From positions 32,001-96,000 of the IMG/VR virus record IMGVR_UViG_3300033153_010326: DNA of 64,000 bases; one strand, written 5' to 3'. This stretch comes from a virus. A program made the position numbers and the translations under genes. The notes under the pieces are model-generated. The model was not told where the DNA came from. It was given only the letters and a program-made list of their open reading frames with translations, and ran no database searches. Shown one piece after another: positions 39,768 through 55,845 of the stretch; position 1 is the stretch's first letter, and every line of letters starts with the position of its first letter.

Positions 39768-40325
39768 ATGAAAACCAAATTACAACCTAAACAAGCAGAT
39801 ATAATATTAGCTCATAACTATGGGATTTTTGGTTGGTATGTAAGATTAGTAACTAAAAGTTATTGGAATCATTGTCTTTTATATTTAGGTAATGGAGAAG
39901 TATTAGATATATTAGGAAAGGGAATTACCAAATTAAATTATAATAAATATTATAAAGACAAGATAGACCATAAATTTTTAAGAGTTAAAGGATTAACTGA
40001 TTACGAAAAGAGGCAAATTTGTAAACATGCTTTAAAATTTAAAGGACAAGCTTATAATATAAGTTTAGTTTTAGGATTTAAAAATAATATTAAAGCTTTT
40101 ACTTGTAGCCAGTTTATAGTTAAAATATTTGCAGATAAAGGAATTCTTTTATGTAAGGAAGCTTTAACGGTATCTCCAGCAGAATTAGATAATAGTATGT
40201 TTACTTATGATTTAGATAATCCTCCTAATAGACAAAAGAGGTTAAATAAATTAGGAGAGATTATTAATTATGAAGTAAAAAAGTATGGATTTAAGAAAGA
40301 AGAAATTGTAAATTTAATTAAATAA
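39768..40325 (+). CDS. permuted papain-like (YiiX/YebB NlpC/P60) enzyme
   Basis: ADIIL...SYWNHCLLY (His) before FTCSQF (Cys), SPAEL. Confidence 0.82.
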   Translation: MKTKLQPKQADIILAHNYGIFGWYVRLVTKSYWNHCLLYLGNGEVLDILGKGITKLNYNKYYKDKIDHKFLRVKGLTDYEKRQICKHALKFKGQAYNISLVLGFKNNIKAFTCSQFIVKIFADKGILLCKEALTVSPAELDNSMFTYDLDNPPNRQKRLNKLGEIINYEVKKYGFKKEEIVNLIK

Positions 40326-40337
40326 AAGGAGGTTTAC

Positions 40338-40661
40338 ATGTTTGGAAAAATAATTATTGCATTGTATACTTGGTATTCAAAGAGAGTTCAAGCTAAATAT
40401 CAGAAGGTTCAACAAGATACTAAAAAAGATAAAGAAGTAGAGTTTTATCAGAGTCTTCAAAAACTGTATAAGTTTGCTCAATGGTTAAATAAACAATTTG
40501 TTAATAGACAAGAAAGAAAGAGGTTTTGGAGTGGAGTTGCAAAAGGAGAAAAGCCTTTGGAAACCACAATACAACAATTAATAGATAATTATAAAAATAA
40601 ACAAGAAATAGAAAAAAAGAAGAAAGAAGTGAAAATTAATGTCCAAGAAAAAACCATTTGA
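40338..40661 (+). CDS. hypothetical protein
   Basis: AGGAGGT RBS. Confidence 0.65.
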   Translation: MFGKIIIALYTWYSKRVQAKYQKVQQDTKKDKEVEFYQSLQKLYKFAQWLNKQFVNRQERKRFWSGVAKGEKPLETTIQQLIDNYKNKQEIEKKKKEVKINVQEKTI

Positions 40662-40803
40662 TAAACAAGTATTTATGTGTTTATATTGTAATCATACTTG
40701 GGAATTGAGATGTGATAATAGGTTAGTTACAGAAGAAGAATTTAAAAATTGGATAGAAGAAGTAAAGGAACAACATAAACAAAATTGCAATAAATGAGGA
40801 ATT

Positions 40804-41184
40804 ATGTTAATTTATCATCCATCTAATAAAAATTTTAACATAGTTAAAGTTAAATATTTTGGAGAAAATTTTTATACTCAAAATGATAAAAAAGTTTCTC
40901 CCATAAATAGAACTTTTTGGTATACTATACTTCCTATTTTGGAAGGTAGGTTTAAAAATGTAAAATATATTTATATAGCTAAAGTTAATAAAAAAGAGAT
41001 ATATGATATTTCTAAAGATGATTTTAATTTTAAATTTAAATTTTCTAATATTCATAATTTGTTATTACATTTAAAAACAGAATACTTAGGAATAAAATAT
41101 CAAATTGAAACTTATGAATTAGTAGTATTATTTAAAGATATTAAACCTACAGGTAGAATAAAAAACAGAAAAAATATAATATGA
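40804..41184 (+). CDS. hypothetical protein, possible ADP-ribosyltransferase-like fold
   Basis: IYHPS...F...FWYT...YIYIAKV...IYD strand order recalls small ART-like domains; tentative. Confidence 0.4.
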   Translation: MLIYHPSNKNFNIVKVKYFGENFYTQNDKKVSPINRTFWYTILPILEGRFKNVKYIYIAKVNKKEIYDISKDDFNFKFKFSNIHNLLLHLKTEYLGIKYQIETYELVVLFKDIKPTGRIKNRKNII

Positions 41185-41927
41185 AATTAAGAAAAATAAA
41201 TAAAAGAACTTTTAGTTGGCAAGGAATTACTTATAGAATTTTTGTAATTTGTATAAATGCTTTATTTTTTAAAATAGGAGCTAAACAAGCTATGCAAAAT
41301 TATGGAGCATTAGGAGCTTCTTTAATTTGGAATAGTATCAATATGGCGTTATATTTTTTCTATCATGGGATATTTTTAAATTTATTTTCTTTAGAAGTTA
41401 AAACTAAAGGAGCTGTTATTTGGTTTACTGGATTACCTTGCTCTGGTAAAACTACTATTGCAGATGCAGTAGCAATAGAATTAAAACAATTGGGAAAAAA
41501 TATAGAAAGATTAGATGGTGATATCGTTCGTAAAGGAAAATTAAGTGATGATTTGGGATTTTCAAAAGAAGATAGAGATAAAAATATAAACAGAATTAAT
41601 TTTATCAGCAAATTATTATCAAGAAATGAAATAATTGTTTTGGCTTCTTTTGTATCTCCTTATAGAAAAACTAGAGATATAATAAGAAAAAATGTTACTA
41701 ATTTTATAGAAGTATATGTTAATTGTTCTTCTAAAGAATGTATAAGAAGAGATATTAAAGGAATGTGGAAATTAGCTAAAGAAGGAAAAATAAAAGGATT
41801 TACAGGATATGATGCTCCTTATCAATATCCTTGTACTCCTGAAATAAAAATAAAAACAGAATTAGAAACTATAGAAGAATCTACTAAAAAAGTAATAGAA
41901 TATCTTAAATATAAGAATTTAATATAA
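41181..41927 (+). CDS. cysC: adenylyl-sulfate (APS) kinase with N-terminal DUF2061-like membrane segment
   Basis: IWFTGLPCSGKTTIA, LDGDIVR, DLGFSKEDR, SFVSPY, RDIKG, FTGYDAPY. Confidence 0.95.
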   Translation: MKLRKINKRTFSWQGITYRIFVICINALFFKIGAKQAMQNYGALGASLIWNSINMALYFFYHGIFLNLFSLEVKTKGAVIWFTGLPCSGKTTIADAVAIELKQLGKNIERLDGDIVRKGKLSDDLGFSKEDRDKNINRINFISKLLSRNEIIVLASFVSPYRKTRDIIRKNVTNFIEVYVNCSSKECIRRDIKGMWKLAKEGKIKGFTGYDAPYQYPCTPEIKIKTELETIEESTKKVIEYLKYKNLI

Positions 41928-42487
41928 TGCTTATTAGTCATAAATTAAAATTAATATTTATTCATATACAAAAAACAGGAGGAGCTAGTTTTAAACAAGC
42001 TATTAGAGATATAGACCCTAAAGCTCAAGAAATAATAGATTTTCATGCAAAAATAACAAGAGAATTGATTAATAAATATCCCGATTATTATAAAGTTACT
42101 ATTGTAAGAAATTCTTATAAAATAGTGGTATCGAGGTGGAAATTTGGAGGAATTAAATATGGACATTTAACAGAAACTCAAGTTAGAGAATTTTGGAGAT
42201 TTAAAGAATGGTTATTAAATAGTTTAGGAGAAGTATTTAATCAAGTATCATATATTAAAGATGAAAAAGGAATGTTAGTTGACCAAATTATATATTATGA
42301 TAAATTAGAAGAAGGAATAAAAAAATTAAACAAAAAATTAAATATAAATATATCTATGAAAAATAAAAAAGTTCATTATTATGGTTTATATAATTATAAA
42401 GAATTTTATAATAAAGAAATAAAACAAATTGTTGAAAAGAAATGTAAAGAAGATATTAAATATTTTAATTGGAAATTCGAGGATTAA
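41927..42487 (+). CDS. PAPS-dependent sulfotransferase (Sulfotransfer_2-like)
   Basis: FIHIQKTGGAS (5'-PSB), IVRNSY..VVS (3'-PB), EDIKYFNW. Confidence 0.88.
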   Translation: MLISHKLKLIFIHIQKTGGASFKQAIRDIDPKAQEIIDFHAKITRELINKYPDYYKVTIVRNSYKIVVSRWKFGGIKYGHLTETQVREFWRFKEWLLNSLGEVFNQVSYIKDEKGMLVDQIIYYDKLEEGIKKLNKKLNINISMKNKKVHYYGLYNYKEFYNKEIKQIVEKKCKEDIKYFNWKFED

Positions 42488-42488
42488 A

Positions 42489-43127
42489 ATGAGACAAGAA
42501 GAAATATATATTATTGGTGGAGGAGCTTCTTTAAAAGGATTTGATTTTGATTTATTAAAAGATAAAGATACTATTGTTGTTAATAAAACTATATTTCATG
42601 TTAAAAATCCTACTTATTTTATAACTATGGATTATATGTTTTTAAAAAATTATAGAGAAAAAATTAAAAGAAATAAAACTGCTAAGTTTTTTGTTGGAGC
42701 TATGAATAATGCTTATTTAAAATATAAAAATGGAAAATTAACAGATACTAAACATAAAATTTCTTATGATTTAGATATGATAGATGTTCTTATTTTTTCT
42801 AAATATGATAAAGGTATTGGATTTGATTTTACTAATTTTAGGCATGGATGTAATAGCGGTTACTGTGCTCTTCAGTTAGCAATTATATTAGGATATAAAA
42901 AAATAAATTTACTAGGTATAGATTTAAATTTTACAGAAAATACCCATTTTCATGGAGGATATGGATATTCAAAAAATCATTTTAAGAAAAGATTAGCTTT
43001 TTATACTTTATATTTTAGATATGCTTTTTATGTATTACAAAATCACCCTGAAATTCAAATTTATAATTGTTCTGATATTAGTTTATTAAAAAATTATTTA
43101 CCATTTAAAAATTTAGGAGAAATCTAA
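42489..43127 (+). CDS. Maf/DUF115-like putative glycosyltransferase
   Basis: YIIGGGASL..FDF, VVN, ITMD, NSGYCALQLAIILGYKKINLLGID, HFHGGY, IYNCS. Confidence 0.7.
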   Translation: MRQEEIYIIGGGASLKGFDFDLLKDKDTIVVNKTIFHVKNPTYFITMDYMFLKNYREKIKRNKTAKFFVGAMNNAYLKYKNGKLTDTKHKISYDLDMIDVLIFSKYDKGIGFDFTNFRHGCNSGYCALQLAIILGYKKINLLGIDLNFTENTHFHGGYGYSKNHFKKRLAFYTLYFRYAFYVLQNHPEIQIYNCSDISLLKNYLPFKNLGEI

Positions 43128-43849
43128 TGAAATATTATTGTAAAGAATCTGGATGTAATAATAAGATTCATTATAATACTTTTAAATATGGACAGAAAAG
43201 ATGTAGAAAATGTGCGAATAAACAACATAGTAAGAGAATGAAAGACAAAAACAATCCTTTTTATGGTAAAAAACATACAATTAAAACTAAAAAAAGAATT
43301 AGTATAGTAAATAATGGTAAAAATAATGGTAATTATATAGATGGAAGATGCTCTAAAATTTATTATTGCAAAGAAAAAAATTGCAATAAAGAAATAACTA
43401 TTATGTCTGCTATTTATGGTAAAGGAAGATGTAAATCATGTGCTAAAAAAGGAAAATTAAATCCTATTCAAAGCGGTAAAAATAATCCTAATTTTGGGAA
43501 TGGAGATAAAATGAAAGGAAAAAATAATCCTATGTTTGGTAAAATTGCTCACCATAGTAAAAAAATCAAATATAAAAAAATTCTTATGAGGTCTTCCTGG
43601 GAAATGGCTTATGCTAAATATTTAGACAAATTAGGAATTAAATGGTTATATGAATCAAAAACTTTCGATTTAGGAGATTGTACTTATACTCCAGATTTTT
43701 ATTTACCCGAACAAAATAAATATATAGAAATTAAAGGTTGGTGGAGAAACAATGATAAAAGAAAATTCAAATTATTTATAAAAAAATATCCAAATAAAAA
43801 TATAATAGTATTAATGAAATTTGATTTACAAGCAAAGGAGATATTATGA
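43127..43849 (+). mobile_element. homing endonuclease: Zn-ribbon repeats, NUMOD3, PD-(D/E)xK domain
   Basis: NPFYGKKHT, NPMFGK, RSSWE, WLYE, TYTPDFYL..YIEIKGW. Confidence 0.85.
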
Positions 43850-44562
43850 TTTTTGATATAGTTATTCCCTCATTCAAACGCAAAGAAAAACTTATTAGAT
43901 GTTTAAACTCCATTTTTAAAGCTAAAAAAAATCTAAAAAAAGACCAAATTCAAATATATATTTATTTTGATAATAATGATAAAATAACTTACAATTATTT
44001 TACAAATAAATATAACAATATTAAATGTAATCTCATGAACAAACAATACAGAGCCTTTGGAATTTGGAATAAACATTTACAAATATTGGATTCATGTGGA
44101 ATGGTATACCTTTGTGATGATACTCAATTATATCCAGAAACTTTATATATTTTATTTGAATTATTTAATCAAATTTATAAAAACACAGATGGAATATTAA
44201 CTTTTAATCAATATAATCTAGAATCAGCTTCTAAATATGCTATGGGATTAATTGGAAAAAAGTTTATTAATAGATTTCCTAATAATCAATGTTTTTGTCC
44301 TGATTATGTCTCGTTTTATGCTGATGCAGAATTAGGAAGATTTGCGGAATCTTTAAATAAATTTTATTTTGGTAATGGAATAAAAATACATCATTTTCAT
44401 CCAGCATTTTATCCAAATGAAAAAGATTCAACTCATTTATTAGTAAGAGATGAACAACAAAAAATAGATAAAGAAGTTAATAAAAAGAGAAGAGAACGAG
44501 GATTGCTTTGGGGTAAAGATTTTAAATTAATTAGACCTACAATAGAAGGAAATATAAAATGA
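43846..44562 (+). CDS. GT2-family glycosyltransferase
   Basis: DIVIPSFKR, YLCDD, FYADAE, HHFHP. Confidence 0.8.
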   Translation: MIFDIVIPSFKRKEKLIRCLNSIFKAKKNLKKDQIQIYIYFDNNDKITYNYFTNKYNNIKCNLMNKQYRAFGIWNKHLQILDSCGMVYLCDDTQLYPETLYILFELFNQIYKNTDGILTFNQYNLESASKYAMGLIGKKFINRFPNNQCFCPDYVSFYADAELGRFAESLNKFYFGNGIKIHHFHPAFYPNEKDSTHLLVRDEQQKIDKEVNKKRRERGLLWGKDFKLIRPTIEGNIK

Positions 44563-45761
44563 AAGTAATATTTTTAGATTGGCATAGATGGACATTTCCT
44601 CCAGATAAGAATAGTTTGAAAAAACTTCTTATTAAATGCGGAGTAGAATGTAAAGATATGAAACCCGCTCCTGTAAATTCTGGTAATTCTAATTTACTTA
44701 TTAAATCAAATCATAAACCTCAAAATAATTATAGGGGATTTGATGTAAAATCTATGATAAAAGCAGGAGTATTACGAGAAACAAAATGGTATGTTAATAA
44801 TTCTAAAGTAACAAAAAAATATATGGTAGAAGTAATGGAGTATATAGATTGGGCTTTTAAAATATTTGAAGAAGAAAAGCCTAATTACATAGTAATTGAA
44901 GGAGGATTGACTCATTTTCATAGAGCAATATTAGAAGTTGCTAGAGAATTAAATATAGGTATTATTGCAATTGAAAATTCTTTTATTAAAGATAAAATAT
45001 TTATAGAATTTAATACTGGTTATGTATGTAATAGACATTCTTTTGCAAGATGTTCTAAAGATTGGATAAATACTAGAGTGTTAAATTCTTTTAAAATAAA
45101 AAAAGTAGATAATATTATACAAAGTATTTTTTCTAAAAATAATTTAAAATATCCAACAACAGGCAATTTTGATTATTCTCAATTAAAATACGATAAAACT
45201 ATTTTTGTACCATTACAAGTAGCTTTTGACCAAGTAGTAGTATACGATTCTAAATTTAATAATAAAACTTTTATAGAAGAAGTTATGAAAATTTTTACTA
45301 AGTATTTTAAGAATTGGAATATTATTTTTAAATGCCATCCTAAAGAAGAAAAAAGTGGTATATTAAGACAGACAGGGAATTGGATACAAGATAATATTTC
45401 AAATAATAATATGTATCTTATAAGAGGAGCAGAAGAATCTCCTAATACTCAAAATTTAATACAACATGCCGATTTGGTTTGGGTGAATAATTCGCAAGCA
45501 GGATTAGAAGCTTGTTTATTAGATAAGCCCGTAGTAGTTTTTGGTGATGCTTTTTATTCTAAAAAAGGCTTTACTTTAGAATATAATAAATATATTAATT
45601 GGAAAGAGATAAAATTAAACCCTGAATCTATTAAAAATATTGACCAAGTTAAACTTTGGTTTTATTATTTTTATAAGTGGCTTTATAATAAATCATTTAC
45701 TAAACAAGATGAAGAAAAAATTAAAAATATATTAAATATACAGGAGAAAGAAAATGGATAA
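44559..45761 (+). CDS. KpsC/KpsS-like capsule polysaccharide biosynthesis protein (GT-B)
   Basis: IFVPLQVAFD, FKCHPKE, VNNSQAGLEACLLDKPVVVFGDAFY. Confidence 0.88.
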   Translation: MKVIFLDWHRWTFPPDKNSLKKLLIKCGVECKDMKPAPVNSGNSNLLIKSNHKPQNNYRGFDVKSMIKAGVLRETKWYVNNSKVTKKYMVEVMEYIDWAFKIFEEEKPNYIVIEGGLTHFHRAILEVARELNIGIIAIENSFIKDKIFIEFNTGYVCNRHSFARCSKDWINTRVLNSFKIKKVDNIIQSIFSKNNLKYPTTGNFDYSQLKYDKTIFVPLQVAFDQVVVYDSKFNNKTFIEEVMKIFTKYFKNWNIIFKCHPKEEKSGILRQTGNWIQDNISNNNMYLIRGAEESPNTQNLIQHADLVWVNNSQAGLEACLLDKPVVVFGDAFYSKKGFTLEYNKYINWKEIKLNPESIKNIDQVKLWFYYFYKWLYNKSFTKQDEEKIKNILNIQEKENG

Positions 45762-46344
45762 AATAGTTTTTATTATAGGAATGAGAAGAGCAGGAACAAG
45801 TATATTGAGGTCTCTTTTAATGCAACATTCTAAAATTGAATTTATAGAATTTGAACCTCATGATTTATTATTTGCTGTTGGAACTAGACATATAAAAAGG
45901 TATAATAGTTCAAAGTATCATATAGATACTATTAATCGTTTTTTTAAAAATAACAAAAAATATTATGGAGCCAAAATAGTTTGTAATCCTTATTTATCAG
46001 CATTAGGATGGAGATTTTTAAAACGATATTTTCCACAAGCTAAATTTATTTTTATAAAAAGAGATTGGATAGATAATTATAATTCTTGGTATAAACAAGA
46101 CATAAATTCGGTTAGAGGAGTTATTCCAAAAGAAATGTATAAATATTTTTATGATAAAATTAATACTAGTTTTGAAAATTTTTATGAAAAAAATATGCTT
46201 AATGCTTGTATGATTATTTATGAAAATCTTGTTAATAATGCTGATAAAGAATTAATAAAAGTATGGGAAGTTTTAAATATTAGAATTAAAACGGGCTTTA
46301 ATAAAGAAATGAAAAAACCTTCTAATTGGAGAATAAAAACATGA
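45754..46344 (+). CDS. PAPS-dependent sulfotransferase (Sulfotransfer_1/3-like)
   Basis: FIIGMRRAGTSIL..L.QH, FPQAKFIFIKRD..D...S, IYENLV. Confidence 0.85.
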   Translation: MDKIVFIIGMRRAGTSILRSLLMQHSKIEFIEFEPHDLLFAVGTRHIKRYNSSKYHIDTINRFFKNNKKYYGAKIVCNPYLSALGWRFLKRYFPQAKFIFIKRDWIDNYNSWYKQDINSVRGVIPKEMYKYFYDKINTSFENFYEKNMLNACMIIYENLVNNADKELIKVWEVLNIRIKTGFNKEMKKPSNWRIKT

Positions 46345-47378
46345 GTAGACAGATAATTTGGATAGACCCTAAAATTATTACTAAAATTTCTCCAATTTCA
46401 GCTTCTGCTTATACTCGAAAACAAAGAATATTAAAATATAACTTAACTTTTAAGAGTGGTTATTTAAATGGAGATTGGGATAAAACTAATAATAAATTTA
46501 AACATTTACTTTGTTGGGGAGATTACAATCTTTTTAAAAATAATAAAAAATCAGTATATAATTGGAAAATTCTTTATAATAGTATAAAGAAAAAAGGTTA
46601 TAAACAAAATCCATCTAAAAGACATGTTGAAGTAGCTCTTGGAAGAAATGGGGAAATTTTATTTGTTGATGGAAGGCATAGATTATTATTAGCAATGGAA
46701 TTTAATATTTCTGAAATTCCAGTTGATATAGTATATATTCATAAAGATTATAATTTTAATAATCTTCATTTAATAAAAAACCTCATAATTCCAGAATTTT
46801 TATATAATATAATTAGCAAAAAATGGGATAAAAAAATAAAAATTTATCATAGATATTTAGTTATTCATCAAAGAGGCAATTTAGTTAAAAAATACTTACC
46901 TTTGTTATCAGGTTTAAATGTGTTAGAAATAGGATGTAATTCAGGAATGATGATGTGGTCAATTATGAAATATGCTAATTCTTTAATAGAATTAGAAAAA
47001 CAATTAAAATATTTTAATCAAAGTTATATCACTTATAAATCTTTAAAGAAATCTTCTAAGGTATTATTATTTAATGATTCTTTTAAAGATTTTATAATTA
47101 AATATCCTCATGCTTATCTTGATATAAATGCTTTATATGCTTCTTTTGTTTTATATCATATGAATAAAGAAGAAATAGATTTTCTTAAAACTAAAATACT
47201 GCCTTTATGTAAAACAGTAATTATTCCCAATCGCCAAAAAGAAAGAAAAAGCAAAATAAATCCTTATTATTTAAATAGAGATAGTAGGATTAAACAATTA
47301 TTAGAAGATTGTGGATTTAAAGTTATAATAGATACTTCTTTTCAAAAAGGATTCTCAGTTATAGTGGGGACAAAATGA
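46341..47378 (+). CDS. ParB/Srx-like domain fused to a SAM-dependent methyltransferase
   Basis: LYNSIKKKGY...FVDGRHRL...IPV; C-terminal VLEIGCNSG...VLYH. Confidence 0.78.
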   Translation: MSRQIIWIDPKIITKISPISASAYTRKQRILKYNLTFKSGYLNGDWDKTNNKFKHLLCWGDYNLFKNNKKSVYNWKILYNSIKKKGYKQNPSKRHVEVALGRNGEILFVDGRHRLLLAMEFNISEIPVDIVYIHKDYNFNNLHLIKNLIIPEFLYNIISKKWDKKIKIYHRYLVIHQRGNLVKKYLPLLSGLNVLEIGCNSGMMMWSIMKYANSLIELEKQLKYFNQSYITYKSLKKSSKVLLFNDSFKDFIIKYPHAYLDINALYASFVLYHMNKEEIDFLKTKILPLCKTVIIPNRQKERKSKINPYYLNRDSRIKQLLEDCGFKVIIDTSFQKGFSVIVGTK

Positions 47379-48388
47379 AAATTAAACTTTTTCAATGTGG
47401 TGGAGAAAACAGTATTTCAGAATATCCTTTAGGATTAGGATATTTAAAATCTAATTGTATAGCAAATATTAAAATAATTAAAAATAAAAACGATTTAAAT
47501 AATTGTGATTTTATTGGACTTTCTACTAATGCTTGGGGATTAAAAGAAGCTATATCTATTTTAAATAAAACAAATATTCCTATTATTTTAGGAGGACAAG
47601 GAGTATTATGGAAGGAAATTAAAAATTATCCTTTTAAGTATATTGTTTATGGAGATGGGGAAATAGCTCTTCAAACAATTATAAACAAGAATACTAATAA
47701 ATTATTACATTATCCAGTTCAAAATATAGATAATTTAAAATTTCCAGAAAGAGGAAAATGTAAAGAAAGAATTCCAATTTTAACTTCAAGAGGATGTCCA
47801 TTTAAATGTAATTTTTGTTCTTCTAATGCTTTTTGGGGTAATGTTCGTTATCATAGTGCTGAATATTTTATTGATGAAGTATTAGATATTTTAAATAAAT
47901 ATCCTCAAGGTAAAGTATTATGGATTTTAGATGATTTATTTATAGGTAATAAATTAAGATTTGAAGTTATTTATAAAAAATGGATGAGTTTAAATTTAAA
48001 TAAAAAATTAAAATTAAGAGGATTTGTAAGGTCTAGTTTAATAACTTCAGATAATGCAAAACAAATGAAAGAAATGGGATTTCAAAGAATTCGATTTGGG
48101 GCTGAAAGTGGTAGTAATAAAATGCTAAAAGATTTAAATAAAAGTGCTACAGTAGAACAACATCAACAGGCTATTGATATTGCAAATAAAATTAAATTAC
48201 CTATTTCAGCTTCATTCATGTATGATTTACCTGGAGAAACTTTAGAAGATAAAAAAATGACTAAAGAATTTATAGAAAAAAACAAAGGAAAGTTATTAGT
48301 AGAAGGATGGTATAAATTTAAACCTTTTCCAGGTACTAAATTTTATAATGGAGAAAATCCTTTAACTTATGATATGAGGGTACGATAA
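47375..48388 (+). CDS. cobalamin-binding radical SAM enzyme
   Basis: PLGLGYL, ILGG, GDGE, TSRGCPFKCNFC, DDLF, GAESGS, LPGET, PFPGT. Confidence 0.92.
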   Translation: MKIKLFQCGGENSISEYPLGLGYLKSNCIANIKIIKNKNDLNNCDFIGLSTNAWGLKEAISILNKTNIPIILGGQGVLWKEIKNYPFKYIVYGDGEIALQTIINKNTNKLLHYPVQNIDNLKFPERGKCKERIPILTSRGCPFKCNFCSSNAFWGNVRYHSAEYFIDEVLDILNKYPQGKVLWILDDLFIGNKLRFEVIYKKWMSLNLNKKLKLRGFVRSSLITSDNAKQMKEMGFQRIRFGAESGSNKMLKDLNKSATVEQHQQAIDIANKIKLPISASFMYDLPGETLEDKKMTKEFIEKNKGKLLVEGWYKFKPFPGTKFYNGENPLTYDMRVR

Positions 48389-48963
48389 TGAATAAACAAA
48401 ATAAAAATTTTAATAAAAAATTAAGGTCAGGAGAAAGACAAGTTCGTAATGATTTACATAAAATGCAATGGAATCAAAAATGGAGATATTGTAAAGCTTT
48501 GAATTATATTAAACAAGAAAATACCGTATTAGATATAGGTACAGGATGTGGTTCTGGAGCTTATATTCTTTCATTATTAGCAAAAAAAGTAATAGGAATA
48601 GATGATAGTGAAGAAGCTATAAAATTTGCTAAAATGAATTGGTCAACTTCCAATATAGAATTTTTTTGCCAAGATGCTTTAAATTTACAAGGTAAATACG
48701 ATATTATAACAGCTTTTGAATTAATAGAACATATTAAAGATGATATAAAATTATTTATTAAATTTAAGCAACTTAATCCTAAATATATTATTATATCAGT
48801 TCCTCATATTTCAGTACCTTTATCTAGGTCTAAATGGCATTGGAAACATTATAAACAAAAAGAAATTAATAAATTATTTAATAATATAGGATATAAAGTA
48901 ATTGTTAATGATATAATAAAATTTGGAAATTTAGCTATTTTTGCAGTAGCAGAAAGGAAATAA
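48388..48963 (+). CDS. class I SAM-dependent methyltransferase
   Basis: RY, VLDIGTGCGSG, GIDDS, FELIEH, ISVP. Confidence 0.9.
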   Translation: MNKQNKNFNKKLRSGERQVRNDLHKMQWNQKWRYCKALNYIKQENTVLDIGTGCGSGAYILSLLAKKVIGIDDSEEAIKFAKMNWSTSNIEFFCQDALNLQGKYDIITAFELIEHIKDDIKLFIKFKQLNPKYIIISVPHISVPLSRSKWHWKHYKQKEINKLFNNIGYKVIVNDIIKFGNLAIFAVAERK

Positions 48964-48965: not shown

Positions 48966-50255
48966 ATGAAAAAATTAGCATTAATAAAAGTTTTTTTAAA
49001 TGAATTTCAAAGAAAAACTCATTCACTTACTTTTGATTATTTAATAGCAAGTATTAATCAAGCAAAAATAGAGATAGATATAAAAATTTGTTATAGTTTA
49101 CAAGAAATTAAAGAATATAAACCCGATATAGTAGGTATTTCTACTGTTACCGAATCTTATATGATTGCTAAACAATTAGCAAAAGACATTAAAAAAGAAT
49201 TAGGAAGTATAGTAATTATAGGAGGAACTCATATAACAGCATTACCTCAAACTATGTCAAAAGATATGGATATTGCAATAATAGGAGAAGGGGAAAGAAC
49301 TATAGTAGAAATATTAAAATTGTCAGAAAAACCTCCTTGGCATTTAACTGGAATAGATTCTATTTTAGGAATAGCTTATTGGAAAAATGGTAAACTTTTT
49401 CAAACTAACCCAAGACTTTATATTCCTATGGATGAATTACCTATACCTATTCATCCAAATATTAAATATGATTTTGGAGAGGCTATAGCTATTTTAACTA
49501 CTAGAGGATGTGTTAATCGCTGTGTTCATTGTTCTGAACAAAAAATATGGAGACCTTTTAGATATTTGTCTGGCAAAAGATTAGCTGAAATTATAGATGT
49601 TCATTATAAAAGAAGTGGAATAACTGATTATGTATTTATGGATGATATTTCAGTATTTAATCTTAAACGATTAGTAGAATTAAAAGAAGAACTTATAAAA
49701 AGAAATATATTTGATAAAATTAAAATTGTAAAAATTTCTACTAATTCTGAAATTATTACTGAAGATATTGTAAAAATATTAAAAGAATTAGGATTAAGAT
49801 TAGCAGGGTTTGGTTTAGAATCCGCTTCTTCTAGAATTTTAAAAGAAATGAAAAGAGGAAGAGTAACTATAGAAGATTTTAAAAGATGTATAACTTTATT
49901 TGGAAAATATGGGATAAGGTCTGGAGCCTCTACAGTATGGGGATTTCCTGGAGAAACTTTAGAAGATATGGAAAAAAATAAAAAATTTTTGGTAGAATGG
50001 AATGGCAAATATCAATTCAAATCTTTTATGCAATATTGCTGTCAACCTTTGCCTGGTTCGGATTTGTGGGATATGATGTATGCAAAAGGGAAAGTATCTT
50101 TAGATATGGATTTTTCAACAATGAAAATTCATCCAAAAAATATAAAAGAAAATTGGTTATATATTAATGAGGATACTGTAAATAAAGAAGATTTTATAAA
50201 ATTTTTAAATCAAACCAGAAAAGAAATAAGAGAGGCTAAAAAAAATAAAAAATAA
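48966..50255 (+). CDS. cobalamin-binding radical SAM enzyme
   Basis: PDIVGIS, IGGTHIT, IGEGE, TRGCVNRCVHC, GLES, GFPGET, PLPGS. Confidence 0.92.
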   Translation: MKKLALIKVFLNEFQRKTHSLTFDYLIASINQAKIEIDIKICYSLQEIKEYKPDIVGISTVTESYMIAKQLAKDIKKELGSIVIIGGTHITALPQTMSKDMDIAIIGEGERTIVEILKLSEKPPWHLTGIDSILGIAYWKNGKLFQTNPRLYIPMDELPIPIHPNIKYDFGEAIAILTTRGCVNRCVHCSEQKIWRPFRYLSGKRLAEIIDVHYKRSGITDYVFMDDISVFNLKRLVELKEELIKRNIFDKIKIVKISTNSEIITEDIVKILKELGLRLAGFGLESASSRILKEMKRGRVTIEDFKRCITLFGKYGIRSGASTVWGFPGETLEDMEKNKKFLVEWNGKYQFKSFMQYCCQPLPGSDLWDMMYAKGKVSLDMDFSTMKIHPKNIKENWLYINEDTVNKEDFIKFLNQTRKEIREAKKNKK

Positions 50256-50266
50256 GGAGAAGATAA

Positions 50267-51415
50267 ATGAAAAAAATTGGAATAATTTCTTGTTTTGGAT
50301 ATAAAAATTGGGGAGATGATGCTCAATTATGTAATGCTATTTTAAAATTAAAAAAGAATAATTATAAGAATATTTTAGTTTTTTCAAGAGCAGGATATAT
50401 AAAAGAATTAACTAAAACTCCTATGGTTTTTTCTTCTCATATTTTATTTAAAAATTGTAAAACAAATGAACAGTATTTAAAAAAATACCAATTTTTATTA
50501 CAAAACTATAACCAACCTAATAAATTAAGTATTAATGAAAAAGTATTTATTAAAAATTTATCAAAAATTGATATATTATGGTTTTCTGGAAGTGGAGCTA
50601 TTAATACTCTTAAATTATCAAGATTATGTATTTTTTTCTTGCCTTGTATATTAGCTAAAAAATTAGGAAAAAAAGTAATTTTAACAGGACAAGGAGTAGG
50701 AAATTGTGATAATAAAGAATATCATCCTTTAATGAAAGAAGCTTTAAATTCAATAGATATAATAACAGTAAGAGATTTTGATTCAGGTATTAATCAATTA
50801 AAACAATTAGGAATTACATCGTCAATATATAAAGGAGTTGATGATGCTTTTAATTATCCTATTACTACTAATAAATTTAAATCTTTAAAAAATAAACAAG
50901 TATTAGGTATTAATATTTCTTTTCTTATAACTCCTAAATTAAAAAAGATTTTATATAATTTTGCAATAATAATGAAAAATCAAGGATACTTTCCTGTATT
51001 TAATTATTTTCAAAGAGAAGAAAAAATTGCTAAAGAATGTAGTAAAGGTAAATTTCCTGTTGTTGGATTTAATAAAGTTTCTGAAATGGCAGAATTTTAT
51101 AATTATTGTAAAATAGCTATTGGAATGAGATATCATTCTGTTATTTTTGCTTTAAGTCAAAAAGTTCCTACTTTAAATATATATTTAAATGAATATCAAG
51201 CAAATAAAATAAAAGCTATTGAAAAAGAATTAAATATTAAAATGGGAGTTAATTGTATTAAAGATACACCAACTGCTAAAGAACTAGTGGATTTAATAAC
51301 GAACATATCTAGTTTGTGTAATCAAACTAAAGAAGTATTAATTTCAGCCCATAAACAATGGACAGAAAAAACAAATTTAATATTTAATTTATTAAAAGGA
51401 AAATATGAAAAATAA
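50267..51415 (+). CDS. polysaccharide pyruvyltransferase family protein
   Basis: GYKNWGDDA, SGSG, GQGVG, ITVRD..S, DDAF, GMRYHSVIFA. Confidence 0.88.
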   Translation: MKKIGIISCFGYKNWGDDAQLCNAILKLKKNNYKNILVFSRAGYIKELTKTPMVFSSHILFKNCKTNEQYLKKYQFLLQNYNQPNKLSINEKVFIKNLSKIDILWFSGSGAINTLKLSRLCIFFLPCILAKKLGKKVILTGQGVGNCDNKEYHPLMKEALNSIDIITVRDFDSGINQLKQLGITSSIYKGVDDAFNYPITTNKFKSLKNKQVLGINISFLITPKLKKILYNFAIIMKNQGYFPVFNYFQREEKIAKECSKGKFPVVGFNKVSEMAEFYNYCKIAIGMRYHSVIFALSQKVPTLNIYLNEYQANKIKAIEKELNIKMGVNCIKDTPTAKELVDLITNISSLCNQTKEVLISAHKQWTEKTNLIFNLLKGKYEK

Positions 51416-51959
51416 TATTAAAAATATTATCAAATCTCGTCGGAGTATAAGAAAATTTAAAAATATTCCTATTGCAAAAAAAGATTTAGAAGATTTAATA
51501 GAAGCTGGAAGTTTTGCTCCTACAGGTTCAAATACCCAATGTTATAGATTTATTGTTACTACTAATAAACAAGATATTCAGACTATAAGAAAGTTAAGAG
51601 GTTATTGGTTTAAAACTTGTCAAGCTATTATAATTTGTTTTGCTGATAAAAAGAATTATCCAGTTAAAAGTAAATTACTTATTCATTTACCTTATTGGGA
51701 TTGTGGAGCATCTATTCAAAATATATTATTATTAGCGGAAGAAAAGAAAATAGGAACTTGTTGGGTATCTATGCACCCCAAATTAAAATGTATGGAATTT
51801 ATTAATAAAACTTTTAAAATTCCAAAAGATTATGAAGTGATGGGAGCAATAGCATTAGGATATTCTGATGAAATTATAAATTATAAAACTGCTACACATG
51901 GTACAAGGTTTATTAAAAGAAAACCTATTAAATATTATATATGGAAATGGAGAGAATAA
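51405..51959 (+). CDS. nitroreductase family flavoprotein
   Basis: IKSRRSIRKF, APTGSNTQ, DCGASIQNILLLA, GTCWV, IALGY. Confidence 0.92.
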   Translation: MKNNIKNIIKSRRSIRKFKNIPIAKKDLEDLIEAGSFAPTGSNTQCYRFIVTTNKQDIQTIRKLRGYWFKTCQAIIICFADKKNYPVKSKLLIHLPYWDCGASIQNILLLAEEKKIGTCWVSMHPKLKCMEFINKTFKIPKDYEVMGAIALGYSDEIINYKTATHGTRFIKRKPIKYYIWKWRE

Positions 51960-52109: not shown

Positions 52110-52733
52110 ATGATAATTATATCATATTTTACTCGTAATACTCCTTACGAAGAAGTTATGAATTTTAAACTACTTCCTAGTCTTAAAAAATGGAATCTTA
52201 AATATGATATTGAAGCTATAGAAGATAAAGGAAGTTGGCAAGCCAATACTCACCTTAAAGCTGATTTTATTAAAAGGATGTTATTAAAGCATAAACAAGC
52301 AGTAATATTTTTAGATGCTGATGCAACTATAGAAAAATTTCCTGAATTATTTTTTAGATTAAAACATGAGAATTATGATATTTCTTATCATGAATTGGAT
52401 TGGTTTAAGATGTGGAGGAAACAAGAAGGTAATTCTAAAAGAGAAGTTCTTAGTGGTACTTTATTTATAAATTATACTGAAAATAGTTTAAAATTTTTAG
52501 ATGATTGGATAGAATTAAATAAACAAAGTATTGAATGGGAACAGAGAAATATGGAGAAAGTACTTGAAAAATGGAAAGATAAACTTAAAATATATCCATT
52601 ACCTTATGCCTATATTACAGTAATGTATAGAAATAACCAATTACCTTTACATATGATAAAGAAAGAGGATATATTTATATTACATTGGCAAGTGAGTAGG
52701 TTATATCGCAATTGGCATAAAAGGAGAAAATAA
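52110..52733 (+). CDS. GT-A fold nucleotide-diphospho-sugar transferase
   Basis: ISYFT..TPY, W.ANT..K, IFLDADA (DxD), LSGTLF, EQ, LPYAY, HWQ.SR. Confidence 0.8.
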   Translation: MIIISYFTRNTPYEEVMNFKLLPSLKKWNLKYDIEAIEDKGSWQANTHLKADFIKRMLLKHKQAVIFLDADATIEKFPELFFRLKHENYDISYHELDWFKMWRKQEGNSKREVLSGTLFINYTENSLKFLDDWIELNKQSIEWEQRNMEKVLEKWKDKLKIYPLPYAYITVMYRNNQLPLHMIKKEDIFILHWQVSRLYRNWHKRRK

Positions 52734-52942
52734 TGATAAAAACAAAAAAACAAAAATATTTAGGTAAACTAATTTTTTCAGCAACAGGATTAAGAAAGAT
52801 GGCTAATGCTTTACAAAAAAAGAATAAAACTAAAGGAGATGTTAAAGTTAAATGTTATATAGAAAAATTTAAATATAAGTATGATGGAGAAATTTATAAA
52901 ACTATAGGTATTGATATAAAAGGAAAAAAACATGATAAATAA
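52733..52942 (+). CDS. hypothetical protein
   Basis: AGGAG RBS. Confidence 0.55.
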   Translation: MIKTKKQKYLGKLIFSATGLRKMANALQKKNKTKGDVKVKCYIEKFKYKYDGEIYKTIGIDIKGKKHDK

Positions 52943-53651
52943 ACCAACTCAATTAATAATTCTTGGTGGTGGGTCTTCTGTTGTTGAAGGTATTAATAAA
53001 GAATTATGGCAGAAACTTAAAGGTAGATTTGTCATTGGTTTGAATCATTCGTACGATTTCTATCCTGACCCTACTTTTATGACTTGTTTAGATAATCATT
53101 TTTTCACCCATAAAAATAAAGACGGTGGTGATGTTTGGGAAGATTTAAAAAAACAACCTTTAATAATTACCAAGCAACATAAACCTAAAGATATGTTACC
53201 TAATATGATTGTTGTTAAAGGTTGTTCTTGTTTTAATAGGACTTTATTTGAAGGAGCATATAAAAGTAGTCTTACAGGGATTTATACCTTATCTTTAGCT
53301 ATTCATTTATTAGATGTAGGAGAAATATTTCTTTTAGGATATGATTTTTGTGCTAATGGAAAAAATAAAGGAAAAGATATTACTCATTGGTATCAAGGAC
53401 AGTTACAGCATAAAGGCATTGGTAAAATTAATTATTATCATACTAGGAATCGAGCAAATAACGATTTTAAACCTTTTTTAAAAGAAACAAAATGTAAGAT
53501 ATATAACGTGTCAATGATAAGTAAAATTCCAGAAAATATTTTTGAAAAAATAAGTTATAATAAATTTTTCAGTTTATTAGATAAAAACCAATATAATCAA
53601 GATTTATTGAGGACTGAAATTAAAAATAAATTAAAAGAGATAACAAAATGA
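52932..53651 (+). CDS. second Maf/DUF115-like putative glycosyltransferase
   Basis: IILGGGSS, IGLN, CLD, LTG...LAI...IFLLGYD, THWY, IYNVS. Confidence 0.68.
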   Translation: MINKPTQLIILGGGSSVVEGINKELWQKLKGRFVIGLNHSYDFYPDPTFMTCLDNHFFTHKNKDGGDVWEDLKKQPLIITKQHKPKDMLPNMIVVKGCSCFNRTLFEGAYKSSLTGIYTLSLAIHLLDVGEIFLLGYDFCANGKNKGKDITHWYQGQLQHKGIGKINYYHTRNRANNDFKPFLKETKCKIYNVSMISKIPENIFEKISYNKFFSLLDKNQYNQDLLRTEIKNKLKEITK

Positions 53652-54259
53652 ATAAACTTAGTTTTAATATACCCAAAAAATTATTAATTAATTTATATAG
53701 AACCCAAAAATTATCTGCATTTAAAATTGCTAAGAAATTAAGATGTAGTACTACTACTATAATTAAGAGATTAAAAAAATTTAATATTAAAATAAGAACT
53801 TCTGCTGAATATATGATAGAAAATAAATATTGTAAAACAGGAGAAAAACATCATAATTGGAAACCCGAAAAACACAAAATTTATTATTGTAAAGAAAAAA
53901 ACTGTAATAATAAAATCACTTATCAAACTTGGAAATATGGTTCAGGAAGATGTGGTTCTTGTGCTCAACATTATTTTCGTAAGATTCATCCAAATTATCA
54001 AAAAAAAAATCATCCTATGTTAGGAAAAAAACATACTAAAAAAAGTAAAGAAAAAATGAGAAAATCTTTATCAAAGCATCATATATATTTAAAAGAAAAT
54101 CATGATAAAATTATAAAATTATCAAAGTCAAAACATTCTTTATTACATGTAAAAGCTTATACTTATATATACCAAAAATATGGAAAAAAAGGTATTAATA
54201 ATTATTTAAAATGGTTTGATAAAAATTATGATTTATTTGAAGGCAAAAAACATGACTAA
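53648..54259 (+). mobile_element. NUMOD3/Zn-ribbon homing-endonuclease-like protein with HTH and His-rich (HNH-like) C-terminus
   Basis: YYCKEKNCNNKI...RCGSCA, HPMLGKKHT..SKEKMR, KHHI...H..LH. Confidence 0.7.
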
Positions 54260-54689
54260 AATAATTATTATGAGTATAGCTTTATTTATCGCTTTTTATC
54301 TTATAATGTTTATTGATTTAATCATAGGAGGACTTAAAAAAATGGAAAAGAAAATTTATTCTTTAGTAATTGGGAGGTTTCAATGTTTACCTCCTCACGA
54401 TGGACATTTAGGATTAATTAATACTTTATTGAAAGAAGATAAAAATGTTTGTATAGCTTTAAGAGATACAGATACAAATGAAAAAAACCCCTATACTTTT
54501 GAACAAAGACATAGAGCTTTTATGAAGATTTATAGTAAAAAAGTAGCTGAAGGCAGAATTAAAATTATAAAAATTCCTGATATTGAAGATGTAGTTTATG
54601 GGAGAAAGGTTGGGTGGGGAATAAGAGAAATAAGATTAAATTCTAAAATAGAAGATATAAGTGGTACAAAAATAAGAGAAAAATCATGA
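54252..54689 (+). CDS. HxGH nucleotidyltransferase, candidate minimal ATP sulfurylase
   Basis: IGRFQ..PHDGH, NPY, IPDI..V.YGR.VG, ISGTKIR; hydrophobic leader from 54252 or second RBS/start at 54342. Confidence 0.75.
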   Translation: MTKIIIMSIALFIAFYLIMFIDLIIGGLKKMEKKIYSLVIGRFQCLPPHDGHLGLINTLLKEDKNVCIALRDTDTNEKNPYTFEQRHRAFMKIYSKKVAEGRIKIIKIPDIEDVVYGRKVGWGIREIRLNSKIEDISGTKIREKS

Positions 54690-55177
54690 AAAGAGGGGAT
54701 ATAATACTATTTTATTACAAATATGACCCTATTGCTTGGCTTATACGGCTCACCACGCATAGTAAATGGAATCATATAGGGATAATGCTACATGGTACTG
54801 TAATCCTCGATTTAAGGGCTACTAAGCGAAGAACTGCCCATATAAGAAGGTTTTTACATAGTCCTATTTATAAGCTAAAATTACTAAGGATTAAAAATCT
54901 AACTCATGAAGCTCAAGAACGTATAATTGCAAATATAGATGCTCAACCAAAAGTTAGAATCTATTATAAATTATTGTGGAAATTTTTATTAATGTTTTTT
55001 GGAATTCCTTCTAATATATGTAATAACTGTGCTGAAGTAATTGCGAAACCTTTAAGAGAAGAAGGGTTTGATATATGTCCAGGTAAAGATGTGAGATTAA
55101 TAACTCCTGAAGATTTTAATAAAAGCGATTTAGTTGAGGATGTTAGTGGAGAATTAACTTATAAAAGGAGTTTATAA
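54686..55177 (+). CDS. second permuted papain-like (YiiX/YebB) enzyme
   Basis: RGDIIL...IRLTTHSKWNHIG (His) before NCAE (Cys), ITPEDF. Confidence 0.8.
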   Translation: MKRGDIILFYYKYDPIAWLIRLTTHSKWNHIGIMLHGTVILDLRATKRRTAHIRRFLHSPIYKLKLLRIKNLTHEAQERIIANIDAQPKVRIYYKLLWKFLLMFFGIPSNICNNCAEVIAKPLREEGFDICPGKDVRLITPEDFNKSDLVEDVSGELTYKRSL

Positions 55178-55845
55178 TGACTAATAAAATAGCAATTTTA
55201 GTACCTTGTTTTAATGAAGAAGATACTATATCTGAAGTAGGAAGTGATTTAAGAAAAAGTAATTATCCTTATTTAATTATTAATGATGGTTCTACAGATA
55301 GGACTAGCAAACTTTTAGATATTAATAATTTAAATCATATAGATTATTATCCTAATAGAGGAAAAGGTAATGCTATTAAATTTGGAGCAGGAATTTTAAT
55401 AGGACAGGGTTTTAATTATATATTAATAATGGATGCAGATGGTCAACATGATATAAAAGACATTTATACTTTTATAAATTATTTAGAAACTCGCTCTATG
55501 GTAAAAATTATTATAGGTAATAGATTTTGGAATCCAAAAAGAATGTCTCTTATTAGAAAATTAACTAATAAAGTTATGAGTTGGGTAGTATCTAGATTAG
55601 CAGAGGTTATAATTCCAGATACTCAATGTGGATTTCGTCTAATACACAAAGATATTATAAATAAATTAATAACAGAAAGTGATAATTTTGATTATGAAAG
55701 CGAACAACTTATTAAAGCTGGAAGAGAAGGATATGAAATAATATCAATTCCTATTACCTGTATATATAAAAAAGGAAGAGAGTCCAAAATGAACCCTCTT
55801 CGTGATACTATTCGTTTTTTTAAAATGATTAAAAGATTTATTTAG
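55177..55845 (+). CDS. GT2 polyprenol-phosphate glycosyltransferase (DPM1-like)
   Basis: VPCFNEE, INDGSTD, NRGKG.A, MDADGQH, GNR, DTQCGFR. Confidence 0.92.
   Translation: MTNKIAILVPCFNEEDTISEVGSDLRKSNYPYLIINDGSTDRTSKLLDINNLNHIDYYPNRGKGNAIKFGAGILIGQGFNYILIMDADGQHDIKDIYTFINYLETRSMVKIIIGNRFWNPKRMSLIRKLTNKVMSWVVSRLAEVIIPDTQCGFRLIHKDIINKLITESDNFDYESEQLIKAGREGYEIISIPITCIYKKGRESKMNPLRDTIRFFKMIKRFI

Follow-up and report, generated by a model that had tools for sequence, protein, structure and literature searches.

Enzymes with which viruses alter glycans are known from several systems, among them the Gtr proteins of O-antigen conversion, the 'LPS gene' (lipopolysaccharide, LPS) islands of cyanomyoviruses, the glycosylation of mycobacteriophage virions and the methylated and pyruvylated fibril glycans of giant viruses, in all of which virus-borne transferases and decorating enzymes act on host precursors. 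Here we describe a locus of this general kind, a 16-kb island of predicted genes for glycan assembly, glycan decoration and sulfate activation carried by the IMG/VR virus record IMGVR_UViG_3300033153_010326, which is 104,368 bp long, has direct terminal repeats of 114 bp and is rated 100% complete. The stretch of DNA analysed, hereafter the window, comprises 64,000 nucleotides (nt; bases 32001-96000 of the record), and the island lies at window positions 39768-55845. Coordinates are those of the window unless genome or contig positions are named, and all island genes are on the plus strand.

Like the viral sets listed above, the island occupies a variable region of its genome and contains a GtrB-like gene. 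It differs from them in lacking GtrA and GtrC, in lying outside the late structural operon, and in adding sulfation, with its own candidate module for the synthesis of 3'-phosphoadenosine 5'-phosphosulfate (PAPS), as well as three putative ulosonic-acid transferases. In mycobacteriophages the transferase genes lie inside the late structural operon or directly behind it, and capsid or tail-tube proteins bear glycosylated C-terminal tails, whereas the island belongs to the replication arm and is encoded on the strand opposite the structural genes. Glycan modification by phages is known, but no described case of sulfation was found: full-text literature searches returned no paper on a phage sulfation pathway, nor was a phage found which combines three ulosonic-acid transferases, pyruvylation, radical S-adenosylmethionine (SAM) methylation and sulfate-activation genes of its own. 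A tblastn search of 50,697 deposited phage records returned no counterpart of the sulfotransferase, the KpsC/S-like enzyme or the pyruvyl transferase, and megablast of the island against GenBank phages gave no match. The claim of an earlier reading made from the letters alone (the sequence-only reading), that no characterised phage pathway is this complete, agrees with the tblastn result.

Counterparts of individual island enzymes occur in cellular systems, namely the initiation of group 2 (ABC-transporter-dependent) capsules by KpsS and KpsC (family GT107) in Escherichia coli, Neisseria and Campylobacter; the Campylobacter sialyltransferases Cst-I and Cst-II (GT42), the WaaZ transferase of the third 3-deoxy-D-manno-oct-2-ulosonic acid residue (Kdo-III) and the Maf flagellin nonulosonate transferases; and the synthesis of PAPS by Sat or CysDN with CysC, including the cysP-sat-cysC arrangement of Bacillus subtilis and the bifunctional PAPS synthase of metazoans.

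The island is a native, lineage-conserved 'glyco-sulfation island' of uncultured tailed phages with genomes of ~95-105 kb. In the genome described here, the plus-strand arm (genome 30-87.8 kb) carries the replication genes, including a primase-helicase, a UvsX-like recombinase, a family B polymerase with an intein, phosphoesterases, MazG and an SbcC-like ATPase, and the structural genes are on the minus-strand arm, among them that of the tape measure (63587-67324, -). The island forms the final 16 kb of the plus arm, convergent with the tail arm, the terminal genes of which encode proteins of 912, 180 and 484 residues, and accounts for 15% of the 104-kb genome and about 20 enzymes. It consists of 24 open reading frames (ORFs), 22 of them of at least 100 residues, all on one strand and 99.8% coding; 17 of the junctions overlap by 1-62 nt (16 of these by 1-11 nt), and the single real gap measures 142 nt (40661-40804). 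The sequence-only reading had described about 20 co-oriented, mostly overlapping ORFs, as was indeed found, directly abutting the tail module, which is valid downstream only, since it is there that the island ends the plus arm and converges on the tail arm; its upstream neighbour is the replication module (PolB, MazG, SbcC-like gene). A promoter and terminator scan of the DNA gave the same counts as in shuffled sequence, and a search for transfer RNA genes found none.

The guanine-cytosine fraction is 0.21-0.32 over the window and 0.22-0.25 in the island and its flanks, codon usage in the island correlates with that of the rest of the genome at r=0.97, and paralogs of the island endonucleases, of the YaeF-like genes and of one small ORF are encoded in other parts of the genome. 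Relatives were collected as metagenomic and IMG/VR contigs (L and G numbers) through searches with the KpsC/S-like family and with a small HxGH-motif enzyme of the island; single-protein scans with the two genes flanking the island returned no relatives. At least five related metagenomic phages have an island at this site, preceded by the SbcC-like gene and pointing towards the tail arm. The left junction, the SbcC-like gene followed by the island, recurs in L120 and L134, and the right junction, the island followed by the convergent tail arm, in L017, L181, L182 and L183. The larger relatives G001, G018 (95.8 kb, with terminal repeats and complete) and G026 share the replication-arm genes, an island of 10-18 kb and a convergent tail arm with homologs of the tape measure and of the 912- and 180-residue proteins. 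The composition and codon usage that match the genome, together with junctions recurring in independent contigs, bear out the earlier view of a genuine phage-borne pathway.

Synteny across the related phages extends to the core gene order, whereas the decoration genes vary. Conserved runs comprise the Cst-like transferase a, the GT2-like and the KpsC/S-like genes; the ParB-methyltransferase, radical SAM, methyltransferase and B12-radical SAM genes; the pyruvyl transferase with the nitroreductase; and the GT-A, Cst-like b and YaeF-like genes, with the GtrB-like gene present in some contigs. At the position of the island's sulfotransferases, L005 and L007-L011 encode methyltransferases. L100 has three sulfotransferases in tandem. 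In L004, the KpsC/S-like gene of which is 88% identical, a GT2, a methyltransferase, an APH-type kinase and a nucleoside triphosphate (NTP) transferase follow the ParB-methyltransferase. An assembly core which is kept while the decoration genes are swapped is what diversifying selection on a surface antigen would be expected to produce.

Profile and structure searches for each ORF recovered nearly every family named in the sequence-only reading. Sulfate activation is represented by an adenosine 5'-phosphosulfate (APS) kinase at 41181..41927 (PF01583, E=5.6e-53), which scores above the equivalog cut-off (TIGR00455, 196 bits against 138.7 bits) and whose P-loop, LDGD, FxSP and KGFTG...PYE motifs are invariant in six phage orthologs, confirming the identification made earlier. 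The enzyme has a hydrophobic N-terminal extension of ~70 residues that is conserved among related phages, and its best cellular matches are flat at 55-62% across Omnitrophota, Bathyarchaeia, Spirochaetia, Planctomycetia and Anaerolineae. The HxGH nucleotidyltransferase that had also been noted was recovered at 54252..54689 from motifs resembling those of nicotinamide mononucleotide adenylyltransferases (NMNATs), weak profile matches and gene context. It is a minimal enzyme of 145 residues, with an N-terminal membrane helix (hydropathy peak 2.59) and a soluble core of ~115 residues, and is a candidate sulfate adenylyltransferase. Of its 98 homologs, mostly of 105-125 residues, five are fused, in one order or the other, to a short APS-kinase-like domain and retain the LDGDxxR...GFSxxxRxxxNxR motif. 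Cultured Casjensviridae of Xylella, Stenotrophomonas and Xanthomonas carry the fused protein; in Xylella phage Salvo (NC_042345, gp32 'kinase', record 15167-15913; L180) the fused form lies beside MazG, 'cysteine dioxygenase' and topoisomerase genes.

The small enzyme is encoded at no fewer than 476 IMG/VR loci. Among the best 80 of these, an APS-kinase homolog lies no more than 10 kb away in 70, and in 67 the small enzyme and an APS-kinase-like gene are on the same strand within ~2.4 kb, with the two genes overlapping by 3-75 nt in 45 of the 67. Genes for Sulfotransfer_3 or Sulfotransfer_2 proteins are present in 26 of 50 whole records encoding the small enzyme and in 1 of 46 arbitrary IMG/VR records of like size (Fisher p=1e-8, for records that are not phylogenetically independent); when Sulfotransfer_1 is added, 29 of the 50 have a sulfotransferase and 21 have none detected. 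The operon of L100 runs from the small enzyme through the APS kinase to three sulfotransferases, and that of L134 from a sulfotransferase through the small enzyme to the APS kinase. Furthermore, in the relative G018 a PHO4/PiT phosphate/sulfate permease (PF01384, E=9e-36; L120:11793-12740, +), with six hydrophobic segments in a hydropathy scan, is placed between the small enzyme and the APS kinase, which recalls the cysP-sat-cysC arrangement of B. subtilis. A transporter is an unusual cargo for a phage.

Known PAPS synthesis shares with the phage genes a canonical APS kinase, a partner of the HxGH superfamily fused or translationally coupled to it, a PiT-family permease, present between the pair in one relative, and sulfotransferases downstream. 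The partner encoded in the island differs in being a 115-residue truncated NMNAT-like fold with no similarity to the PF01747 ATP sulfurylase or to CysD. Its structural model (predicted local distance difference test, pLDDT, 89) is a truncated fold like those of NMNAT and phosphopantetheine adenylyltransferase (PPAT), with three strands and ~80 residues aligning; the GRFQxxxxHxGH and ISGTKIR motifs are common to it and the NMNATs, and its best NCBIfam score, ~30 bits, is below the NMNAT family cut-offs of 127-449. The fusion or coupling with APS kinase, the enrichment of sulfotransferases and the permease in a relative make the small enzyme a candidate non-canonical ATP sulfurylase, an assignment resting on gene context that we consider to have nearly an even chance of being right. 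Several observations weigh against it. ATP sulfurylase is not among the top 50 fold matches and no PF01747 match was obtained in the genome, the nearest relatives are NMNATs and PPAT, and the small enzyme was not found near any of 80 APS-kinase loci of cellular genomes. In addition, in the cultured Xylella, Stenotrophomonas and Xanthomonas phages the fused kinase-transferase is found amid nucleotide-metabolism genes, with no sulfotransferase annotated nearby. PiT permeases and sulfotransferases were likewise near none of the 80 cellular loci. A complex prediction for the APS-kinase domain with the small enzyme, at a score of 0.00, gives no verdict and counts neither way.

The two sulfotransferases of different families proposed before differ in how firmly they can be assigned. 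The Sulfotransfer_3 enzyme at 45754..46344 is above its cut-off (PF13469, E=2e-15; 58.1 bits against 27). The one at 41927..42487 is a probable PAPS-dependent, Sulfotransfer_2-like enzyme that falls below it (PF03567, E=8.9e-4; 19.9 bits against 22), with PAPS-binding motifs read from the sequence, IHIQKTGGASF and VRNSYKIVVSRW, which resemble the 5'-phosphosulfate-binding (5'-PSB) and 3'-phosphate-binding (3'-PB) motifs. A PDB sequence search with the latter protein was empty, and a regular-expression detector of sulfotransferase motifs missed both island enzymes and was not used. At the island's sulfotransferase position, L006 (1252-1962, +; likewise L017 and L007) encodes an apparent kinase/sulfotransferase chimera of 236 residues, the first 100 of which match APS kinase and the rest sulfotransferase domains.

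A homolog of the KpsC/KpsS-type (GT107-like) retaining beta-Kdo transferases is encoded at 44559..45761 (PF05159, Capsule_synth, E=3.6e-20; 73.1 bits against a cut-off of 20), and its QxxxD and HP motifs support the KpsC/S-like label it had been given. The family comprises 25 sequences, the island's own and 24 metagenome-only homologs. Its profile matches the KpsC structure 6MGC (E=1e-10) over residues 166-342; within the motif Q220xxxD224, Q220 and D224 are invariant in the 25 members, H260-P261 and Q313/E317 are conserved, and D224 aligns with D160 of KpsC. In KpsC the QxxxD motif holds the catalytic nucleophile Asp160, and the general acid His94 and the general base Glu66 are in the N-terminal domain (PMC10148158). 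The N-terminal domain of the phage family, outside the profile alignment, has several invariant Glu residues, and no invariant His was seen there. The island enzyme thus shares with KpsS and KpsC the Capsule_synth family, the QxxxD nucleophile and HP motifs, the size of KpsS (400 residues), a probable donor in cytidine monophosphate (CMP)-Kdo and a setting of variable decoration genes. It differs in that the KpsMTED exporter and KdsB/KpsU/KpsF are missing from the island, in having a single domain and not the dual module of KpsC, in its low identity, with the C-terminal half alone aligning, and in belonging to a lytic-type phage. Close relatives, of 39-70% identity, were found in metagenomic sequence only, and pattern scans of a 185,579-genome collection found no cellular relative of the subfamily.

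Two further proteins have been assigned to the Cst/Maf fold (GT42-like, DUF115) as putative CMP-ulosonic-acid transferases. Transferase a (42489..43127) matches phrog_4603 (E=1.5e-22), WaaZ (NCBIfam, E=9e-7) and MptE-like (E=2e-5); transferase b (52932..53651) matches phrog_4603 (E=1.8e-5), and the two are paralogous families (hhalign probability 98.4%). The AlphaFold2 model of transferase a (pLDDT 83) has as its best Foldseek matches Cst-I (2P2V), Cst-II (2X61) and Maf (5MU5), with probability 1.0 and TMq 0.51-0.57; a PDB sequence search with it was empty. Against the Pfam MptE-like family (PF01973) transferase a reaches 24.8 bits, below the 34.6-bit cut-off, and the protein at 52932 has no match. 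Cellular relatives of the transferase a subfamily in the same genome collection are 26-30% identical at most, and three of five lie inside multidomain proteins of 543-1,718 residues. The earlier description of two Maf/DUF115-like proteins holds as regards their mutual homology and the fold of the modelled one, but the label 'Maf' is too specific, as proteins of 210-240 residues are the size of Cst and WaaZ and not of the ~600-residue flagellin glycosyltransferases. In common with Cst-I, Cst-II, WaaZ and Maf they have the fold (template modelling score 0.5-0.57) and profile matches, and the CMP-activated ulosonic acids used as donors by these enzymes are likewise predicted for them; they differ from Maf in being far shorter, with MptE-like scores under the gathering threshold.

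The two GT2 enzymes, one DPM1-like, and the GT-A DxD transferase expected from the sequence-only reading were recovered as well, the first GT2 through a weak match. This probable GT2-like glycosyltransferase at 43846..44562 (PF00535, E=5.9e-4; phrog_14945, E=5e-4) is 43-57% identical to its counterparts in L004, L005 and L007-L011. A GT-A nucleotide-diphospho-sugar transferase with a DAD motif is encoded at 52110..52733 (PF03407, Nucleotid_trans, E=4.9e-8) and is 47-50% identical in five relatives; a PDB sequence search with it was empty. The last island gene, 55177..55845, encodes a DPM1/GtrB/PpgS-like GT2, a candidate polyprenyl-phosphate sugar synthase (PF00535, E=1.2e-15; phrog_841, GtrB-like, E=5.5e-21; AglJ, E=2e-24; PpgS, E=4e-24). 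It consists of a 222-residue GtrB/DPM1-like catalytic domain alone, and a Gtr-type seroconversion cassette was rejected, since no GtrA flippase and no GtrC GT-C enzyme accompany it and no ORF has more than three hydrophobic segments.

Among the decorating enzymes, a CsaB-like polysaccharide pyruvyl transferase (50267..51415; PF04230, E=6.6e-26, 92.3 bits against a cut-off of 25.3; TIGR03609, E=2.8e-21) is paired with a nitroreductase-family flavoenzyme (51405..51959; PF00881, E=3.5e-27), both as previously named. Its score as a CsaB equivalog, 76 bits, is below the cut-off of 213. The pair is kept in L005, and the conserved position of the nitroreductase next to the pyruvyl transferase hints that the pyruvyl group may undergo a redox reaction. 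Two methyltransferases had been claimed, one of them fused to ParB. Both are present: a class I SAM-dependent methyltransferase at 48388..48963 (Methyltransf_23, E=1.2e-13) and, at 46341..47378, a class I SAM methyltransferase with a ParB/Srx-like N-terminal domain, in which four orthologs share invariant VDGRHRL and VLEIGCNSG motifs. The ParB-like domain itself has no Pfam match, its basis being the invariant VDGRHRL motif and one Atlas cluster that carries ParB_N. Look-alikes of the fusion in the Atlas form several virus-dominated clusters of 60-130 members, one from giant viruses, and are viral methyltransferases. Both B12 radical SAM enzymes are likewise found in part as described: the one at 48966..50255 is a class B enzyme with B12-binding (PF02310, E=5.4e-14) and Radical_SAM domains (PF04055, E=3.1e-25), whereas its paralog at 47375..48388, which has a short N-terminal domain and a CPFKCNFC motif and resembles class B (cobalamin) methylases (PF04055, E=3.6e-18; PhpK-family, E=2e-25), has class-B NCBIfam matches and no Pfam B12-domain match.

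Family membership shows, as predicted activities, PAPS-dependent sulfation, glycosyl transfer by three enzymes of the CMP-ulosonate type and three others, pyruvylation and several methylations. Family, motif and fold evidence is therefore in line with the proposal that the enzyme set makes a sulfated, methylated and pyruvylated glycan with Kdo-like or nonulosonic acids. In such a pathway, the small HxGH enzyme would supply APS, which the APS kinase would convert into PAPS to feed the two sulfotransferases. The chain would be assembled by one KpsC/S-type, two Cst/Maf-fold, one GT2, one GT-A and one DPM1/GtrB-like transferase from host CMP-Kdo or CMP-nonulosonate and host nucleoside diphosphate (NDP) sugars, pyruvylated by the CsaB-like transferase with its nitroreductase-family partner, and methylated by the two SAM methyltransferases together with the two radical SAM enzymes of class B type. 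The absence of flippase, polymerase and sugar-nucleotide synthesis genes, first stated for the window, holds for the whole genome: a simple hydropathy scan found no ORF with more than three hydrophobic segments, hence no flippase, polymerase or other multipass membrane protein, and no CMP-sugar synthetase, canonical ATP sulfurylase (PF01747) or ThyA-like enzyme is encoded. Host sugar-nucleotide donors are consequently needed, and the use of host CMP-Kdo or CMP-nonulosonate would suggest a diderm or nonulosonate-making host.

As to the site of action, we tentatively favour the remodelling of a host LPS- or capsule-like glycoconjugate over decoration of the virion, at a likelihood just short of even. 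Assembly would most likely take place on a lipid-linked acceptor, on the cytoplasmic side of the host's membrane, and host export machinery would display the altered glycoconjugate on the infected cell, for example masking receptors. Characterised KpsC/S, WaaZ and DPM1/GtrB/PpgS enzymes use lipid-linked acceptors at the membrane (PMC10148158 and established knowledge); these acceptors, along with the membrane helix of the small enzyme and the hydrophobic extension of the APS kinase, favour assembly on the membrane side. The preference of the sequence-only reading for cytoplasmic decoration of virion proteins is not upheld, given that relatives of four of the enzymes act on lipid-linked acceptors at the membrane, that both candidate PAPS-supply enzymes have hydrophobic N-terminal extensions and that the island is on the strand opposite the structural genes. 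Other findings count against a host target. By hydropathy scan the genome has no ABC exporter, GT-C enzyme or initiating phosphoglycosyl transferase, export would rest wholly on the host, and the DPM1/GtrB-like gene is accessory, being missing in G001, G018 and G026. In Mimivirus, moreover, soluble transferases build methylated and pyruvylated glycans on virion proteins, and the same is described for soluble transferases of mycobacteriophages (Freeman 2023, as cited in PMC12619734).

With these precedents from giant viruses and mycobacteriophages, virion glycosylation is the rival that survives best, and we regard it as somewhat unlikely. Soluble or peripheral cytoplasmic transferases would then build a sulfated acidic glycan on capsid, tail or fibre proteins, giving a variable anionic coat. 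It would require none of the lipid-carrier initiation, flippase or export genes that the genome lacks; enzymes of the Maf fold attach glycans directly to proteins, and one of the best fold matches is Maf 5MU5; the GT-A belongs to PF03407, a family with members that glycosylate proteins; and the end of the island adjoins the hypervariable last tail gene, both varying among relatives. However, the island continues the replication arm, opposite in strand to all structural genes, the lipid-linked acceptors of KpsC/S-, WaaZ- and DPM1/GtrB-like enzymes apply in every characterised case, the PAPS enzymes appear membrane-anchored, and in a weak test no Ser/Thr-rich tails were seen on the structural proteins.

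A different product altogether is improbable in our estimate. The island would in that case yield, for example, a sulfated glycolipid or a small molecule that lysis sets free, or modify another host polymer, with the enzyme pair carrying out an adenylylation of the nicotinamide adenine dinucleotide (NAD) type or like that of coenzyme A (CoA), followed by 3'-phosphorylation. Such a role would suit the closeness of the small enzyme to NMNAT and PPAT, the fused form in phage Salvo beside MazG and topoisomerase genes, and the occurrence of the pair in at least 67 of the best 80 of 476 viral loci, while 21 of 50 records have no detected sulfotransferase. On the other hand, the island kinase, with a score over the equivalog cut-off, is a genuine APS kinase, sulfotransferases are strongly enriched and often in the same operon, and the pyruvyl transferase, KpsC/S and Cst-fold families are glycan-specific. 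Still less probable, to the point of being very doubtful, is a DNA hypermodification in which modified bases of the phage genome would receive a complex glycan from the transferases, with the ParB-like domain binding the DNA. Glycosyltransferases of phages are reported to be capable of DNA hypermodification (Pyle 2024, as cited in PMC12619734), the ParB-like domain is fused to a methyltransferase, and MazG and a deoxyribosyltransferase are encoded upstream; the genome, however, has no thymidylate-synthase-like hydroxymethylase, and the families present, such as the pyruvyl transferase and the KpsC/S-, WaaZ- and DPM1-like enzymes, belong to polysaccharide and lipid-linked glycan chemistry. We know of no sulfated DNA glycans. 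The glycosylation of hydroxymethylated DNA bases was rejected, as no ThyA-like gene is present. Finally, a host capsule or LPS locus joined by misassembly, which the gene content resembles, can practically be dismissed and was rejected, because composition and codon usage are uniform, the island contains phage-type homing endonucleases with structural-arm paralogs, both junctions recur in independent metagenome contigs, relatives with the same replication-arm genes, island and tail arm argue strongly against it, and pattern scans of the 185,579 genomes found no relative of the KpsC/S-like subfamily and Cst-like relatives of 26-30% identity only.

The remaining island ORFs include two homing endonucleases and two papain-fold proteins that the sequence-only reading had not mentioned. 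A free-standing homing endonuclease with NUMOD3 and endonuclease I-like domains (43127..43849; Pfam and PHROG matches) has a 47%-identical paralog in the structural arm, and an ORF with helix-turn-helix and NUMOD3 domains (53648..54259; Pfam matches) resembles homing endonucleases and has paralogs at other genomic sites. At least five paralogous NUMOD3-type ORFs are spread over both arms, namely these two and those at genome 88-777, 18259-19005 and 22224-22862, and in relatives homing endonucleases occur at other island positions (of the HNH type in L007). The papain-fold proteins are paralogs of the YaeF/YiiX permuted type (NlpC/P60, C92), one at the left island edge (39768..40325; NCBIfam YaeF, E=9.4e-12; phrog_1128, E=2.7e-14) and one at 54686..55177 (phrog_1128, E=2.7e-6); the second is conserved in L017, L100 and L183, where it adjoins transferase b. 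Speculatively, they might prepare lipid acceptors. A third YaeF/YiiX-like protein and a papain-family C1 peptidase are encoded in the structural arm at genome 20846-21472 (-) and 22873-23703 (-) (L015:846-1472 and 2873-3703). Two small ORFs at 40338..41184, of 107 and 126 residues, have no family match, the longer having a 46%-identical paralog at window -137..246.

Beyond the island, the variable last gene of the convergent tail arm (55893..57347, -; 484 residues), downstream of the tape measure, encodes a probable receptor-binding protein which is not part of the pathway; it has no BLAST homolog at that position in L017 and L181 and a weak partial one in L183. PDB sequence searches with this protein and with the 912-residue tail protein were empty. 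An intein that includes a LAGLIDADG endonuclease domain (Pfam Intein_splicing, LAGLIDADG_3, PT-HINT) splits the family B DNA polymerase (31466-35056, +). In the tape measure (63587-67324, -; continuing into L019:7787-11524), residues ~197-327 resemble the intein region of the phage's own polymerase (27% over 124 residues), and the protein also matches a PHROG named 'thymidylate synthase'; the tape measure gene may hold an intein. An N6/N4 DNA methylase is encoded at L015:56-832.

The island embeds a candidate for a new enzyme class. The full proposal is that the 115-residue HxGH protein founds a minimal class of sulfate adenylyltransferases and forms with the APS kinase a phage PAPS synthase, that many phages activate sulfate, and that this lineage displays a diversifying sulfated Kdo/nonulosonate glycan on the infected cell or the virion; we hold it tentatively, with the odds somewhat against it. 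If true, sulfate activation would be a widespread viral auxiliary function. Through its coupling to the APS kinase the small enzyme becomes a testable candidate for a new, very small ATP sulfurylase, the cultured Casjensviridae offer a tractable system for the function of the kinase/HxGH pair, and the small size of both enzymes may be of use in the enzymatic regeneration of PAPS. In much the manner of O-antigen and capsule loci in bacteria, a 10-18-kb toolkit of surface chemistry is maintained and diversified in an uncultured phage lineage, a pattern which points to an arms race over an anionic glycan.

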